Part shown: positions 50,230 through 57,846 of the stretch, one piece after another
Numbering within the stretch: the first letter of the stretch is position 1
Layout: each line of letters opens with the position of its first letter
Assembly: GCF_057098645.1 (NCBI RefSeq)
Contig: NZ_CM169472.1
DNA: 64,000 nucleotides
Strand: one strand, 5' to 3'
Program-made: the position numbers and the translations under genes
Notes under the pieces: generated by a model
Database searches by the model: none
Told to the model about the DNA's origin: nothing
The model's input: only the letters and a program-made list of their open reading frames with translations

Positions 50230-51168
50230 TTAACCCGCGAGACGCTGATATTCTTTGGCAATTTCGCTCGCCAGAATGGCGTTGTTGAACACCAGCTGGA
50301 TGTTGGATTTCAGGCTGTCACCGCCGGTCAGCTCAGCAACGCGCGCCAGCAGGAATGGCGTACTTTCTTTACCAATAACACCCTGCGCTTCAGCTTCAGC
50401 TACCGCCTGATCGATCGCCGCATTGATAGTGTGTTCCGGCATAGCAAACTGTTGCGGGATCGGGTTCGCTACCACGAGGCCACCGTTCAGCCCGCTTTGC
50501 CATTTCACCGCCATTGCACGGGCAATTTCGCTGGCGCTGTCGAGACGAATGCTGACGTCAAACGGGCTGGTGCGGCAGAAAAACGCAGGCAGCGCTTTAG
50601 TCTGATAGCCAATTAACGGCACACCGAAGGTTTCTAAATACTCAGTGGTTAATCCTAAATCGAGAATAGATTTCGCCCCGGCACAAACAACGGTGACATT
50701 AGTATTTGCCAGTTCTTGCAAATCGGCAGAAATATCGAAGGTATGTTCCGCCCCGCGATGCACACCACCAATTCCCCCGGTGGCAAATACTTTAATTCCG
50801 GCAAGCGCCGCAATAATCATCGTTGAAGCCACAGTGGTTGCGCCATTTTTTCCGGCGGCAACAACAAAAGGTAAATCGCGACGACTAACTTTGGTCACGT
50901 TATGCCCTTCACGACCCAGTAATTCAATTTCTTCTTTGCTTAAACCCACTTTCATCACGCCGCCAATAATGGCGATAGTGGCAGGTACTGCGCCCTGTTT
51001 ACGAATAGTTTCTTCTACTTCAATTGCGGTCTGGGCATTTTGTGGGAACGGCATCCCGTGAGAAATAATGGTCGATTCCAGCGCCACAACCGGTTTTTTG
51101 TTTTTTAAAGCGTCCTGCACTTCCGGGGAAATTTGTAATAATTCAGGGGAAATTTTTAATTCAGACAT
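50230..51168 (-). CDS. psuG: Pseudouridine-5'-phosphate glycosidase
   Basis: 312-aa translation MSELKISPELLQISPEVQDALKNKKPVVALESTIISHGMP... recognised as the IndA/PsuG family. Confidence 0.9.
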   Translation of the reverse strand: MSELKISPELLQISPEVQDALKNKKPVVALESTIISHGMPFPQNAQTAIEVEETIRKQGAVPATIAIIGGVMKVGLSKEEIELLGREGHNVTKVSRRDLPFVVAAGKNGATTVASTMIIAALAGIKVFATGGIGGVHRGAEHTFDISADLQELANTNVTVVCAGAKSILDLGLTTEYLETFGVPLIGYQTKALPAFFCRTSPFDVSIRLDSASEIARAMAVKWQSGLNGGLVVANPIPQQFAMPEHTINAAIDQAVAEAEAQGVIGKESTPFLLARVAELTGGDSLKSNIQLVFNNAILASEIAKEYQRLAG

Positions 51169-52097
51169 TCTGCGTTCTCCACTAACGATATAACGTTGGC
51201 AATCGATAAATCGGGGTTATTGGTGTATTCACAGGAGAGCGCCATTGACGAACATCCCTGTGCGAAACGAACAGATTCGGCAAACGGCATTCCGTCTACC
51301 CAACACGAAGCAAGTCCCGCCATCATGGCATCGCCCGCTCCGGTAACATTAATAACATTGGTTTTGATCGAGCCAGACCAGCCACTTTCACCGCTGATTT
51401 CACTGTAATAAACGCCATCGCCGCCCATGCTCAATACCAGTCGGTTCAGGCCATGTTGATGGAACCAGGCAGCAACTTTTGCCACATCTTCACGCCCTGA
51501 CAGCGCAATCCCACTCAGGGTTTCCGCTTCAAGGCGGTTTGGCTTCAGAGTGTGGATCTGATTTAGACGGTCGCGCACTTTGACACATTTCCACGCTGAA
51601 ACCGGATCGACAAATACGGGTACGTTGGCAGCATTATCCAGAATCCATGCCAGTGCCTCTTCACTGATATTACAGTCCGCGACAATGACCTTTGCCCTCT
51701 GAATAAATTCACGGTGCTGTGCGAGATATTCAGCTGTAATAGCGTTGCTAATATTCATGTCATTTATAGCAACCAGCATTTCACCGGTATTATCGAGTAA
51801 TGATAAATAGCTCGACGTATTTTCTCCCGGCACAATCAGGCATTTATCGACATAAACGCCAGATTGATTGGTTTGCGTTAGCAGCGATTGTCCATAAAAA
51901 TCACTGCCTACGGCGCTCAGTAGCCAGGCTTTATTACCCAGCAACGCCAGGTTTTGTGCAATATTGCGCCCTACCCCACCAGGCGTAAATTTTATTTTAC
52001 CTGGATTTGAATCCGCATAATTTAATGATTCATGTGAATATCCGGCGACATCAATATTCGCCGAGCCTATAATTACGACATAATCCTTTTCGCGCAT
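51156..52097 (-). CDS. psuK: Pseudouridine kinase (PfkB family)
   Basis: Ribokinase-like fold with C-terminal GAGDA motif. Overlaps the psuG start. Confidence 0.9.
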   Translation of the reverse strand: MREKDYVVIIGSANIDVAGYSHESLNYADSNPGKIKFTPGGVGRNIAQNLALLGNKAWLLSAVGSDFYGQSLLTQTNQSGVYVDKCLIVPGENTSSYLSLLDNTGEMLVAINDMNISNAITAEYLAQHREFIQRAKVIVADCNISEEALAWILDNAANVPVFVDPVSAWKCVKVRDRLNQIHTLKPNRLEAETLSGIALSGREDVAKVAAWFHQHGLNRLVLSMGGDGVYYSEISGESGWSGSIKTNVINVTGAGDAMMAGLASCWVDGMPFAESVRFAQGCSSMALSCEYTNNPDLSIANVISLVENAECLN

Positions 52098-52520: not shown

Positions 52521-54212
52521 TTACGCGGCTTTCACTACTGCGTCCACTTCCGGACGTTTCAGGAAGGCATAGGCCAAACCCGCCACCAGCGTACCGGCAA
52601 TAATTGCTACCAGGTAACCCAGTACCGGCGTAATAGCGCCAGGGATCAGCAGAACAAACAGACCACCGTGCGGTGCCATCAGTTTCGCACCAATCGCCAT
52701 TGAGATTGCGCCAGTCAGCGCCCCACCAACGATACAACACGGCAGCACACGCATCGGATCACGAGCAGCAAACGGAATTGCACCTTCCGAAATAAAGCAC
52801 AGACCAAGAACCAGAGCGGCTTTGCCACCTTCCTGCTGCGCTTTGTCGAATTTGCGACGCGCCACCATTGTTGCCAGACCCATTGCCAGCGGTGGCACCA
52901 TACCTGCCGCCATAATCGCCGCCATCGGGCCATAGGTTTGAGTACTCAGCAGACCCACACCGAATGCGTACGCTGCTTTATTTACCGGACCGCCCATGTC
53001 AGTACACATCATGCCACCGAGGATCGCCCCCAGCAGAACCGCATTCGCAGTCCCCATGGTCTGCAGCCAGTGAGTCAACCCTTCGAGAATGCCAGCAACC
53101 GGTTTACCGATCAGGTAGATCATCGCCAGACCGACCACCAGACTGGAAATTAGCGGAATGATCAGGATCGGTTTCAGCGCCTCCATACTCTGTGGCAGTT
53201 TCAGTTGCGTACTGATTAACTTCGCAATGTAACCAGCCAGGAAGCCCGCAATAATACCGCCAATGAAGCCAGAACCGGTGCTGACCGCCAGCATACCGCC
53301 AATCAGACCCGGCGTGAGACCCGGACGATCGGCAATGGAGAAGGCAATGTAACCTGCCAGTACCGGCACCATCAGCGCAAAGGCTGAACCACCACCAATC
53401 TGCATCAGCGCCGCTGCCAACGTACCCGGCTCTTTAAACGCTTCGATACCAAAAGCAAAAGAAAGCGCGATACACAGACCACCTGCTACGACCATCGGCA
53501 GCATGTAAGAGACGCCCGTCAGCAAGTGACGGTATGCGCCTGCACTCTCTTTCTTACCTTCAGAGGTCGCCGTTTGAGCTTTGCCCGCCGGTTCATACGG
53601 CGTTGCTTCAGCAACCGCTTTATCCAGTTCCTGCGCGGTTTTCTTCAGCGCCAGACCGGTAGAGGTACGATACATCGGTTTACCAGCAAATTTCGCCAGA
53701 TCCACTTCGATATCTGCCGCCACAATCACCAGATCCGCTGCGGCTACTTCTTCGGGGGTGATTGCATTACCCGCACCAACAGAACCACGGGTTTCAACTT
53801 TCACCCACCAGCCACGTTTTTTCGCTTCGGTTTCAATGGCTTCAGCCGCCATAAAGGTGTGTGCTACGCCAGTCGGGCAAGCAGTCACCGCAACTACGCG
53901 TTTCGGACCGCTGGCGGCAACCGGTGCTGTCGCAGCGACCGGCGCAGTGTAAGGTTTCGCATGGCCTTTGGCTTCACTCAGGAACAGCTCAGGGTGCGCA
54001 ACTGCCCGGGAAATATCGCCCAGCCAGACATTTTTACCGTTCAGCGCGCTGTCATTCGGGATGGAATCACCGAGAACAATCGCCATTTCTGCGTCGTTCG
54101 GATTGTCGATGATTTCCAGTTTTGCTTTTCGCGCCGCCGCGCCCAGCAGGGTCTTCGCCATATAGGCGCGTGCCTGACCGAGATTAGCGTCAATAATCAG
54201 CAGCGTTTTCAT
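52521..54212 (-). CDS. fruA: PTS fructose-specific EIIB'BC component
   Basis: 563 aa with N-terminal IIB-like domains and C-terminal polytopic IIC domain. Confidence 0.92.
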   Translation of the reverse strand: MKTLLIIDANLGQARAYMAKTLLGAAARKAKLEIIDNPNDAEMAIVLGDSIPNDSALNGKNVWLGDISRAVAHPELFLSEAKGHAKPYTAPVAATAPVAASGPKRVVAVTACPTGVAHTFMAAEAIETEAKKRGWWVKVETRGSVGAGNAITPEEVAAADLVIVAADIEVDLAKFAGKPMYRTSTGLALKKTAQELDKAVAEATPYEPAGKAQTATSEGKKESAGAYRHLLTGVSYMLPMVVAGGLCIALSFAFGIEAFKEPGTLAAALMQIGGGSAFALMVPVLAGYIAFSIADRPGLTPGLIGGMLAVSTGSGFIGGIIAGFLAGYIAKLISTQLKLPQSMEALKPILIIPLISSLVVGLAMIYLIGKPVAGILEGLTHWLQTMGTANAVLLGAILGGMMCTDMGGPVNKAAYAFGVGLLSTQTYGPMAAIMAAGMVPPLAMGLATMVARRKFDKAQQEGGKAALVLGLCFISEGAIPFAARDPMRVLPCCIVGGALTGAISMAIGAKLMAPHGGLFVLLIPGAITPVLGYLVAIIAGTLVAGLAYAFLKRPEVDAVVKAA

Positions 54213-54228
54213 TATGCCTCTCCTGCTG

Positions 54229-55167
54229 TCAGTTAAAAGGTTGTAAGTCGACGCGCGCCATCATTGCGGCCAACTGCGGACGATCGGTAATACCCACATT
54301 GCTTTGACTTACCGCCAGGGCTGCAACAGCAGTCGCCAGACGCAGTGTGTGTTCACTGGATTCACGCATTAGCAAGCCATAAATCAGGCCACCAACCATA
54401 GAATCCCCTGCGCCAACGGTGCTTACGACATCGACTGACGGTGGTTTGGCGATCCATTCGCCGGAGGCATTAACCCAAAGCGCGCCTTCGGCACCCAGTG
54501 AAATAACGACATGCGCAATACCTTGTTCACGCAGCGCATGCGCAGCTTCAATCACATCTTTCATTTCAGGCAGTTTACGGCCTGCCCAGATTTCCAGCTC
54601 GCGGCGGTTAGGTTTCACCAGCCACGGTGCCGCTTTCAAACCTGCTACTAACGCTTCACGGCTACTATCAAAGATAATGCAAGGGCACTGACTACGCAGG
54701 CGAGTCATCCAGTCGGTGAACGCTTCCGGGCTGACGCCTGACGGTAAGCTTCCGCTGACACAGACCATATCGAACTGACCGAGCCAGCTCAGAGAATCAG
54801 TCACAAAGCGTTCCCAGTCGGCGGGAGTGACTTCAAAACCCGAGAAGTTGAAGTCGGTCACTTCGCCGTCTTTTTCCGTCAGCTTAACGTTAATTCGGGT
54901 GCGCCCCTGTACAACCTGGAAACGGTTGGCAATGCCCAGCTCGCTGAACAGTTGCTGAAAACCATCCTGATTGTCTTTACCCAGGAAGCCGCCAACGGTG
55001 ACATCAATTCCCAGGTCTTTTAATACTTTGGCCACGTTGATGCCTTTACCCGCCGCATGCAGACCGGTGGTTTTCACCAGGTTCACTTCGCCGCGTTCAA
55101 TTTCCGGGCAGAAACCAACAAGGTCATAAGCCGGATTAAGGGTGATAGTAGCAACACGTCTGCTCAT
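54229..55167 (-). CDS. fruK: 1-phosphofructokinase
   Basis: 312-aa PfkB-family kinase between fruB and fruA. Confidence 0.92.
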   Translation of the reverse strand: MSRRVATITLNPAYDLVGFCPEIERGEVNLVKTTGLHAAGKGINVAKVLKDLGIDVTVGGFLGKDNQDGFQQLFSELGIANRFQVVQGRTRINVKLTEKDGEVTDFNFSGFEVTPADWERFVTDSLSWLGQFDMVCVSGSLPSGVSPEAFTDWMTRLRSQCPCIIFDSSREALVAGLKAAPWLVKPNRRELEIWAGRKLPEMKDVIEAAHALREQGIAHVVISLGAEGALWVNASGEWIAKPPSVDVVSTVGAGDSMVGGLIYGLLMRESSEHTLRLATAVAALAVSQSNVGITDRPQLAAMMARVDLQPFN

Positions 55168-56297
55168 TATGCGCCCTCCCCAAGACCAGCAGCGATAGCG
55201 TCGCCGATTGCTTTCAGCGCCTGTTCAGCATCTGCACCCTGGGCGGTAAAGCGTAGGCGATGACCTTTCTTAACGCCAAGTGCCACAACTTTCATCAGAC
55301 TACGTCCGTTTGCCGGTTTGCCGGTGCCATCAAGATTTGTCACGGTAATATCACTGTTAAATTGTTTAATGGTATTGACCAGCATGGTACCTGGACGAGC
55401 ATGCAAGCCGTGTTCATTGCGCACCACAAACTCCGCGCTTAACACGTCGTCGGTCGGCGCATCATCGCTGGTCAGCAGCGCCAGCAACGTTGCCGCATCC
55501 GCTTTCAGCAAGCGGTCAGCTTTATTGTCGAGCAACAAATCAGCGAGACGCTTAAGAACCGCAATGGGCTGATCGTCATTCATCGCCACACTCACCAGCA
55601 TGGCTGCCGTTTCGCCGTCCACATCAAAAGCATTTGCCGCACGGCTTACCGCAATCGCGCTACGCAGATTGCCTTCGGCGCTATCGCTCAGCCAGATACC
55701 CTGTCCGAGATTCAGCGGTTGTTCATTGATGGCTTTGGTGACGAAAGAGGCGTCAACTGCCCCCGCCTCTTTCAGACGCGCAGCGTTCAGCGCCTGAAGA
55801 GTCAGCAGATCGCTGGCGACGATATCCAGCGTCAGCATTTCGTTGTCGAGCTTCAACTGCTCACTCTGCTTTTCGCCCATCAGCAATGCGCGAAGTTCTT
55901 CTGCTGTTGTTGCTGACTTCAGTTGTTCAGCAACGGAATCATCGCTCAGTACGTGGGTCAGCTGGCGTAGCAGGCCCAGATGCTCATCCGAGCTGGCAGC
56001 AATACCGATCGCTACGTACGCTACCTGACCGTCACCCCAGGTGACGCCTTCCGGGAACTGAAATACCTGAACGCCGGTTTTCAGCACCTGATCGCGGGTG
56101 TCGGTAGTGCCGTGTGGAATAGCAATACCATTGCCGAGGAACGTTGAGGTTTGCTGTTCGCGCGCCAGCATGCCATTGACGTAGCCTTCTGCTACATTAC
56201 CGGCCTGCACCAGCGCCGCAGCGACCTGGCGAATCGCCTCTTCTTTGTCTCCGGCCTTTTCGCCCGGATGGATGTCCTGTACGGATAACTGGAACAT
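55167..56297 (-). CDS. fruB: PTS fructose-specific EIIA/FPr (HPr-like) multidomain protein
   Basis: 376 aa with C-terminal HPr-like domain carrying the phospho-His motif GLHARPG. Confidence 0.92.
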
Positions 56298-56311
56298 AGT
56301 TCTCCTCTCCT

Positions 56312-56332
56312 GCTGAATTGAAACGATTCAGC
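56312..56332. promoter_or_regulatory. Cra (FruR) operator, promoter-proximal
   Basis: Palindrome gctgaattgaaacgattcagc 15 nt upstream of the fruB start codon. Confidence 0.55.
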
Positions 56333-56385
56333 TTCTATGAGAAAAAAAGCGCCAACCTGGCTTAGGGTTAAAGACAAGATCGCGC

Positions 56386-56397
56386 TGAAACGTTTCA
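56386..56397. promoter_or_regulatory. Cra (FruR) operator, distal
   Basis: Perfect palindrome TGAAACGTTTCA in the fruBKA upstream region. Confidence 0.6.
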
Positions 56398-56664
56398 AGA
56401 AAGCATAATACTTCTGTTTCAGCACGCAAGGAAAGCCGTAAAGTTATGAGCAAAAGTTTGATGTGCTGCACAATTTTTTGTCATTTTTCCGAATTGCTGA
56501 TGGGAAAATCCGTTATCAGCAATTTCATTTCAGCAGCGTCAGCAGCCAATCAGCAACAGTGAAATGGCATTTTGATTATTCGTGGCGCTTTTGATTTCGC
56601 TGTCTGTTTATTTTCTGACAAGCAGCGTAAACTCCGCGTCTTCCTCTTCCAGTGATCGACCAGC

Positions 56665-57846
56665 ATGCATAACTCCCCCGCAGTCTCCAGCGCGAAATCG
56701 TTTGACCTGACCTCGACGGCGTTTTTAATCGTTGCCTTTCTCACCGGTATTGCGGGCGCTCTGCAAACCCCGACACTCAGTATTTTTCTTACCGATGAAG
56801 TACATGCCCGTCCGGCGATGGTGGGATTCTTCTTTACCGGCAGCGCTGTCATTGGGATTCTGGTGAGTCAGTTTCTCGCCGGGCGCTCTGATAAGCGCGG
56901 CGATCGCAAATCGCTGATTGTCTTTTGCTGCCTGTTAGGCGTGCTGGCCTGCACCCTTTTTGCCTGGAATCGCAACTACTTTGTTTTGCTATTCGTTGGC
57001 GTCTTTCTTAGCAGCTTTGGCTCGACCGCTAACCCGCAAATGTTTGCCCTTGCCCGTGAACATGCCGACAAAACCGGACGTGAGGCGGTGATGTTCAGCT
57101 CTTTTTTACGCGCTCAGGTTTCACTGGCATGGGTCATTGGCCCACCGCTGGCTTATGCCTTAGCGATGGGTTTCAGCTTTACGGTAATGTATCTGAGCGC
57201 AGCGGTAGCGTTTATTGTTTGCGGCGTGATGGTGTGGCTGTTTTTACCGTCGATGCAAAAAGAGCTTCCGCTGGCGACCGGCACGGTTGAAGCGCCGCGC
57301 CGTAACCGTCGCGATACGCTGCTGCTGTTTGTCATTTGTACATTGATGTGGGGCTCGAACAGTCTGTACATCATCAACATGCCGCTATTTATAATCAACG
57401 AACTGCATCTTCCCGAGAAACTGGCCGGTGTGATGATGGGGACCGCCGCCGGGCTGGAAATCCCGACCATGTTGATTGCCGGATATTTTGCCAAACGTCT
57501 GGGTAAGCGTTTCTTAATGCGCGTTGCTGCCGTGGGTGGCGTCTGTTTTTACGCAGGAATGCTGATGGCGCATTCACCTGCCATTCTGTTGGGCTTGCAG
57601 CTGCTAAATGCTATTTTTATTGGCATTCTGGGCGGCATCGGGATGCTCTATTTTCAGGATTTGATGCCCGGTCAGGCAGGTTCAGCCACCACGCTCTATA
57701 CCAACACGTCGCGCGTGGGCTGGATCATCGCAGGATCTGTAGCGGGCATCGTCGCCGAGATCTGGAATTATCACGCTGTGTTCTGGTTTGCGATGGTGAT
57801 GATTATCGCCACTCTGTTTTGCTTACTGCGGATTAAAGATGTTTAA
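56665..57846 (+). CDS. setB: MFS sugar efflux transporter
   Basis: 393-aa 12-TM MFS transporter, divergent from fruBKA. Confidence 0.88.

Follow-up and report, generated by a model that had tools for sequence, protein, structure and literature searches.

The operators of the fructose operon fruBKA are the founding example of regulation by Cra (FruR), and the fruB promoter-operator pair serves both Cra biochemistry and the parts of glycolytic-flux biosensors. Cra recognizes a 16-bp imperfect palindrome, GCTGAAnC/GnTTCAGC with a central CG (PMC7897506 and PMC5888115). In E. coli, the centres of the two FruR sites lie at +7.5 and +73.5 relative to the start of fru transcription, which implies a spacing of 66 bp, and fructose-1-phosphate is the inducer (PMC7897506). 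The binding of Cra at fruB and its release by fructose-1-phosphate are taken here from PMC11157272 and PMC7897506, both of which cite Ramseier et al. 1993 for them, and cra mutants are described in the literature as derepressing the operon. Atomic force microscopy revealed Cra dimers sitting separately on both fruB operators (PMC11157272). The oligomeric state of the protein is nevertheless disputed, a tetramer being described in PMC7897506 versus a dimer in PMC11157272.

Here we describe this locus in a 64-kb stretch of DNA, hereafter the window. Taken as a whole, the region is best explained as holding the promoter, operators and leader of fruBKA, the fructose PTS operon of E. coli, including a leader terminator, a reading to which we assign a probability of about 0.85. 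The operators themselves hold nothing new. The new point is a conserved leader terminator inside this classic promoter-operator pair, of which we found no mention in the Cra literature accessible to us.

The fruB-setB intergenic region and its two Cra operators

The fruBKA operon occupies positions 52521..56297 of the window on the minus strand, as assigned from the list of open reading frames and from NCBIfam equivalogs. Its three genes, fruB (55167-56297; NF008319, 686 bits), fruK (54229-55167; NF007068, 646 bits) and fruA (52521-54212; NF007984, 1172 bits), all on the minus strand, each score far over the curated cut-off of their own equivalog. Downstream of fruA sits the pseudouridine kinase gene psuK (51156-52097, minus strand; NF007355, 709 bits), an arrangement also found in E. 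coli K-12. The fruB start codon lies at 56297-56295 on the minus strand, and setB starts at 56665 in the orientation opposite to fruBKA. Both palindromes are situated upstream of fruBKA, in this fruB-setB intergenic region of an E. coli chromosome. A 501-bp segment of the region shares 99.8% identity with E. coli chromosomes and occurs in 5,417 of 5,426 complete genomes. Compared to K-12 MG1655, the window differs by five SNPs over 651 positions, with no indels, and none of the five falls within either 16-bp operator.

Exact matches to TGAAWCGWTTCA occur twice in the window, at 56319-56330 and 56386-56397, compared to a chance expectation of 0.04 in 64 kb as estimated from shuffles; none of 100 shuffles contained two matches. 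Each match is the core of a 16-bp site. The site O1 ('fruBproximal' in PMC11157272; 56384..56399, minus strand, centre 56391.5) reads CTTGAAACGTTTCAGC in the direction of fruB, and the site O2 ('fruBdistal' in PMC11157272; 56317..56332, minus strand, centre 56324.5) reads GCTGAATCGTTTCAAT. Both 16-mers agree with GCTGAAWCGWTTCAGC at 14 of 16 positions and show the imperfect Cra palindrome with its central CG and a perfect 12-bp core. The two sites are oppositely oriented, such that their perfect GCTGAA halves face one another as an inverted repeat, and their centres are 67 bp apart in the window sequence. Table 1 of PMC11157272 gives 'fruBproximal' as TTCTTGAAACGTTTCAGC and 'fruBdistal' as GAGGCTGAATCGTTTCAA, crediting both to Ramseier et al. 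1993. The former, an 18-mer, is matched exactly on the minus strand at 56401-56384, and the latter at 17 of 18 positions. The single difference, an A for G at 56333, is a flank SNP outside the 16-bp site, and K-12 carries the published base at this position.

Identity to experimentally defined sites, location within the Cra regulon and conservation in orthologous regions all mark these sites as Cra operators. O1 and O2 are the known, published Cra (FruR) operators of fruBKA, and this main finding is not new. An initial annotation of the window had already read the palindromes gctgaattgaaacgattcagc at 56312-56332 and TGAAACGTTTCA at 56386-56397 as tandem Cra operators of fruBKA. Their sequences and coordinates are correct, and the assignment agrees with the NCBIfam equivalogs of the neighbouring genes, with the E. 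coli fruB-setB locus and with the published operator sequences.

To compare the arrangement across genomes, we scanned one genome per species, 100,044 species in all, for two cores lying 40-70 nt apart, which yielded at least 120 loci. Among the 120 matches listed, 69 lie directly upstream of a fruB orthologue whose product shares 64-98% amino-acid identity with FruB of the window; they come from the Enterobacteriaceae, Erwiniaceae, Yersiniaceae and Pectobacteriaceae. Since the cores were required by the search, their conservation is no evidence in itself, whereas position, spacing and flanks are. In all 69 regions, the promoter-side core reads TGAAACGTTTCA, the gap between the cores is 54-56 nt (66-68 bp from centre to centre), and the gene-side core ends 19-25 nt before the ATG. 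The longer block TGAAACGTTTCAGCG is invariant in the 69 regions; its 12-nt core was required by the search, and its trailing GCG was not. Similarly, the GC before the O2 core was not required and is 90-100% conserved. Other conserved blocks are a T-run followed by CTCA, (G)CTGAAnCGnTTCAA followed by TTCAGC, and the Shine-Dalgarno sequence. The sample was chosen for the presence of both exact cores, and how frequently O2 or the terminator is missing lies beyond its reach. A separate search for FruB homologues, in which the best 120 matches listed belong to Escherichia and Salmonella only, recovered Salmonella by its FruB protein rather than by the DNA pattern, with a matching layout.

The remaining 51 of the 120 tandem TGAAWCGWTTCA pairs listed are 41-66 nt apart, belong to unrelated phyla and have no adjacent FruB homologue. 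They include loci in Streptococcus, Enterococcus, Ensifer/Sinorhizobium, Labrys and Mumia, among others, and are presumably operators of other LacI-family regulators. Such pairs, together with the fact that the core TGAAACGTTTCA is a generic LacI-family palindrome, could be taken to mean that the fruB palindromes are chance matches or the sites of another LacI-family regulator. We regard this as scarcely credible. Two matches, separated by 67 bp, stand against an expectation of 0.04; they have the sequences of the fruB operators that served in published Cra binding assays, and they are invariant upstream of fruB in four families of Enterobacterales. The published binding data already contradict such a reading.

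Placing the O1 centre (56391.5) at +7.5 (PMC7897506) puts +1 at about 56398 and gives a 5'UTR of ~101 nt. This start position rests on a secondary citation, and the supplements of PMC3415461, in which primary transcription-start data for fruB were looked for, contained none. The putative sigma-70 promoter fruBp (56402..56429, minus strand) would consist of the -35 element TTGCGT (56429-56424), a 16-nt spacer and the -10 element TATGCT (56407-56402), with TATTAT at 56410-56405 as an alternative -10. In the alignment of the 69 regions, CTTGC at the likely -35 is 90-100% conserved, and the -10 position reads xAGACT in most genera and TATGCT in E. coli. A scan of 56200-56750 against promoter and terminator consensus patterns returned no match, which says little either way, given a weak CRP-dependent promoter and a stem with mismatches. 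Further upstream, a CRP-like site of the form TGTGC-N6-TCAAA (56457..56472, minus strand; TGTGC-AGCACA-TCAAA in the window) is centred ~66-71 bp from the likely transcription start. Its TGTG and TC..A are 100% conserved in the 69 upstream regions, with a varying N6 spacer. For E. coli, PMC8088597 mentions a CRP site ~60 nt ahead of the fruB start, an inexact fit to 56457-56472.

Two further sets of repeats were seen in this part of the intergenic region. A third Cra half-site, GCTGAAAC (56423-56416), in the promoter spacer was considered and dropped as a conserved element, since beyond Escherichia it is retained only in part, in Citrobacter and Salmonella, in the form GCTGAAGx. The overlapping segment CGTGCTGAAAC (56416-56426, minus strand) repeats the O1 half-site together with its flank, and a conserved third operator is improbable here. 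In the interval from the fruB promoter to setB, AATTGCTGAT / ATCAGCAATT (56492-56524) form a perfect inverted repeat whose 10-bp arms are 13 nt apart, among several other copies of GCTGA/TCAGC (56495-56556), in a region that is unconserved outside Escherichia.

At the gene side, the 21-nt palindrome consists of the 16-bp operator (56317-56332) plus an extra outer arm. This arm, TTCAGC (56312..56317, minus strand), directly 3' of the O2 core, shares its first T with the last base of the operator and gives a 7-bp inverted repeat, GCTGAAT/ATTCAGC, around 7 nt. It is 80-90% conserved in the 69 genomes, though it lies mostly beyond the 16-bp Cra consensus. The palindrome is indeed close to the fruB start codon, with 14 nt between them. 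The initial annotation went on to suggest that it overlaps the ribosome-binding and transcription-start region, which is not borne out: O2 is located in the DNA of the 5'UTR at ~+67..+82, and its 16-bp site extends to 56317, which leaves 5 nt to the Shine-Dalgarno region AGGAGAGGAG (56302..56311, minus strand), which was read from the sequence and is conserved across genera. The operator that covers the transcription start is O1 (56384-56399), not O2. Moreover, Cra binds DNA rather than mRNA, so that nearness to the Shine-Dalgarno region implies no control of translation.

An intrinsic terminator in the fruB leader

The DNA between the two operators encodes an RNA hairpin followed by a U-run, neither of which appears in the initial annotation. 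The hairpin (56349..56385, minus strand) begins directly after O1 and pairs its 5' arm GCGCGATCTT (56385-56376) with AGGTTGGCGC (56358-56349). It is followed by the element 56341..56348 (minus strand), composed of a U7 tract (56348-56342) and a C at 56341, ~+58, the position of the mapped RNA 3' end described below. The E. coli hairpin has a predicted folding energy of -14.2 kcal/mol, and its stem contains two mismatches, owing to which a simple scanner missed it.

Comparison across genomes revealed that the ~30 nt following O1 are free to vary in sequence and yet form an 8-12-bp stem in ~57 of 66 distinct genomes. The stem begins at the invariant GCG after O1, and a T-run, 70-90% conserved in the alignment of fruB upstream regions, follows within 0-4 nt of the stem end. 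In 53 genomes, 8 or more of the 10 stem positions are paired, and 45 of these have the start of the T-run 0-3 nt past the stem; the distance from the end of the U-run to O2 is 9 nt in 53 of 62 genomes. The median folding z of the hairpin segment is -3.4 over 66 genomes, with 83% below -2; the E. coli segment is weaker than this, with a modest z of -1.5 to -2.0. For a covariation test, the terminator stem was named explicitly on an ungapped alignment of 33 genomes. For the 10-bp stem, 90.6% of the cells are able to pair, a share that falls to 32-52% once the 3' arm is shifted by 1-3 columns. Compensatory changes on both sides occur at seven of the ten stem pairs, in 49 cells, one stem position for example being occupied by U-A, C-G, A-U and G-C. 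The covariation score of the stem is 0.514, versus 0.267 in shuffles, and was reached by none of 500 shuffles.

The neighbouring leader segments gave no such signal. Folding of the whole E. coli 5'UTR RNA is not significant (z = -0.96), nor is that of a local RNA hairpin at the O2 palindrome (z = -0.64), and we claim no RNA hairpin at O2. A long-range pairing between O1 RNA and O2 RNA proposed by RNAalifold was set aside as uninformative because every pair in it is invariant. Two short blocks, CTCAT after the leader U-run (56337-56341, minus strand) and TTCAGC after O2, are 80-100% conserved in the four families. Neither is part of the covarying stem, and nearly all of both blocks lies beyond the 16-bp Cra consensus.

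In a published Term-seq dataset for MG1655 (Adams et al. 2021, PMC7815308 supplements), a strong minus-strand RNA 3' end maps to 2263539. The fruB start is 2263495 in NC_000913.3, which places this 3' end 44 nt upstream of the ATG. It corresponds to window position 56341, the C directly after U7, and the flanking sequence given in the supplement agrees. The position occurs three times in supplementary file 1, with three growth-condition tabs, and its mean reads are 218,310 (LB, OD 0.4) and, on a second tab, 431,335 (PMC7815308). Its Rho score of 0.26 indicates that it is not a Rho termination region, and its intrinsic-terminator score of 9.61 compares to a value of at least 3.0 for intrinsic termination (PMC7815308). 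In that paper, fruB is present as a row of the supplementary table with an empty regulatory-element column and is absent from the main text (PMC7815308).

With a stem that is GC-rich at its base and followed by a U-run, compensatory changes that preserve the pairing, and a Rho-independent 3' end in vivo in a published dataset, the conserved hairpin and U7 tract between the operators is an intrinsic terminator in the fruB leader. Given the 3' end at ~+58, MG1655 contains an abundant leader RNA of roughly 58 nt. Our search of the searchable literature found no description of a terminator, attenuator, leader RNA, roadblock or sRNA for the fruB leader. The leader terminator is thus backed by published data and apparently uncharacterised so far.

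The abundance of this RNA invites the reading that it is stable and acts in its own right, for example as a short regulatory RNA derived from the 5'UTR and bound by Hfq or ProQ, or else that the hairpin is only a stabilising 5' stem of fruB mRNA; both would be independent of Cra at O2. Very high Term-seq reads in LB and in M63 glucose, both fructose-free, would be in keeping with such a product, as would the 107-nt IGR4 RNA of V. cholerae, which extends from the fruB transcription start. Conservation, however, reaches little beyond the stem base, and the loop and upper stem vary, a pattern that better fits a purely structural element than a base-pairing seed. Moreover, an Rfam search of the leader gave chance-level matches only and no family, our search found no sRNA report, and the intergenic region has no RefSeq annotation. 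We therefore think a role of this kind improbable.

The E. coli leader also differs from a regulated attenuator: only ~13 nt of RNA precede the stem, no alternative E. coli fold was detected and no Rfam family was matched. A search of the fruB leader for an antiterminator, a leader peptide and a ligand-binding structure found none of them.

In Pectobacterium, Brenneria and Dickeya, both operators and the U-run are kept, without the GCG...CGC terminator stem. At four loci of these genera, the RNA of the right half of O1, GUUUCAGC, pairs instead with a downstream copy, GCUGAAA(C/U) or UGAAAC, and this may be a lineage-specific variant of the leader.

A possible role for the second operator

The position of O2 relative to the terminator suggests a way in which the two might act together. 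In the proposed mechanism, a CRP-assisted sigma-70 promoter would start transcription near 56398. Cra, a repressor of the LacI/GalR family, binds O1 and O2, from which fructose-1-phosphate releases it and thereby induces the operon. O1 probably blocks initiation, because it covers +1. Of the transcripts that are nonetheless initiated, a part would be stopped by the leader terminator, and O2, beginning 9 bp past the U-run, would be a roadblock to the elongating polymerase. While it occupies O2, Cra may keep RNA polymerase on the U-tract and thereby render termination efficient.

The distances are consistent with such an arrangement. Collided RNA polymerases have 26-31 bp between their active sites (PMC13082048), from which each is taken to cover ~13-15 bp in front of its own active site. 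The distance from the mapped 3' end to the O2 dyad is 16.5 bp, so that a polymerase stopped by Cra would sit in or near the U-tract, where the pause favours hairpin-driven release. If halted 13-15 bp before the edge of the Cra footprint, its active site would be in the first U residues, a few nucleotides short of 56341. This geometry is approximate and good only to a few base pairs.

We therefore propose, tentatively and as a possibility that we hold to be nearer to doubtful than to probable, that O2 is not a redundant second site but the protein half of a two-part attenuator, in which Cra-bound O2 would lead to termination and fructose-1-phosphate to read-through. If true, this would account for a second operator kept ~67 bp downstream at a fixed distance, for the abundance of the ~58-nt leader RNA when no fructose is supplied, and possibly for the IGR4 transcript of V. 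cholerae.

The fixed distance might instead reflect a DNA loop, formed by a Cra tetramer, or by Cra dimers bridged through FruK, on O1 and O2; the spacing would then be dictated by loop geometry, and the hairpin and U-run would be incidental. Such a loop would agree with the tightly kept centre-to-centre spacing of 66-68 bp and with the description of E. coli FruR as a tetramer (PMC7897506). At 67 bp, or 6.4 helical turns, however, the two sites would lie on nearly opposite faces of the helix, a phasing that disfavours a loop this short. Separate dimers were seen by atomic force microscopy, and the authors hold that tests of looping require a spacing longer than that of the construct used (PMC11157272). 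Neither the compensatory changes in the stem nor the RNA 3' end at the U-run is explained by a loop. We accordingly rate a loop with an incidental hairpin as unlikely, and O1 and O2 probably do not cooperate by DNA looping.

Comparison with described regulatory systems

As far as the fruBKA operators of E. coli and Salmonella are described in PMC11157272 and PMC7897506 (after Ramseier et al. 1993), the locus of the window is alike in position, in its 16-bp sequences, in its regulator and in its inducer. The arrangement is likewise shared, the second site following ~66-67 bp downstream of the one at the transcription start, and the operators show no difference. Should repression or the dynamic range of induction depend in part on the terminator, the role of the second operator would be seen differently, and fragments of the fruB promoter used in reporter or biosensor constructs would be affected.

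Compared to the premature 5'UTR terminators mapped by Term-seq (PMC7815308), the fruB leader is similar in its GC-based stem and U-run and in its Rho-independent 3' end. The search for an antiterminator, leader peptide or ligand-binding structure in it gave none, and the RNA ahead of its stem is only ~13 nt long.

The fruB leader of V. cholerae, considered here from the literature (PMC7897506, PMC8088597), carries three operators, O1-O3, one of them at the transcription start and O3 far downstream at ~+130. The 107-nt IGR4 RNA runs from the fruB transcription start to ~25 bp before the O3 centre (PMC8088597, PMC7897506), and mutation of O3 slightly raises expression in glucose (PMC7897506, PMC8088597). 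The V. cholerae system differs in that FruR activates transcription from an extra operator between -35 and -10, and in its leader of 239 nt. By analogy, IGR4 may be the counterpart of the ~58-nt leader RNA of E. coli.

Among DNA-bound repressors, PurR, CcpA and CodY form transcriptional roadblocks. Compared to the roadblocks formed by LacI (PMC4132739, PMC10310618), the fruB leader shares an operator of the LacI/GalR family well downstream of the start, inside the transcribed leader. It differs from LacI-type roadblocks in that O2 follows the U-run of an intrinsic terminator by 9 bp, a layout that, as far as sequence can indicate, suggests a roadblock coupled to a terminator rather than one that Mfd or spontaneous release resolves. 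Should the terminator take part in regulation, fruB would provide a simple natural case of a DNA-bound repressor possibly driving intrinsic termination.
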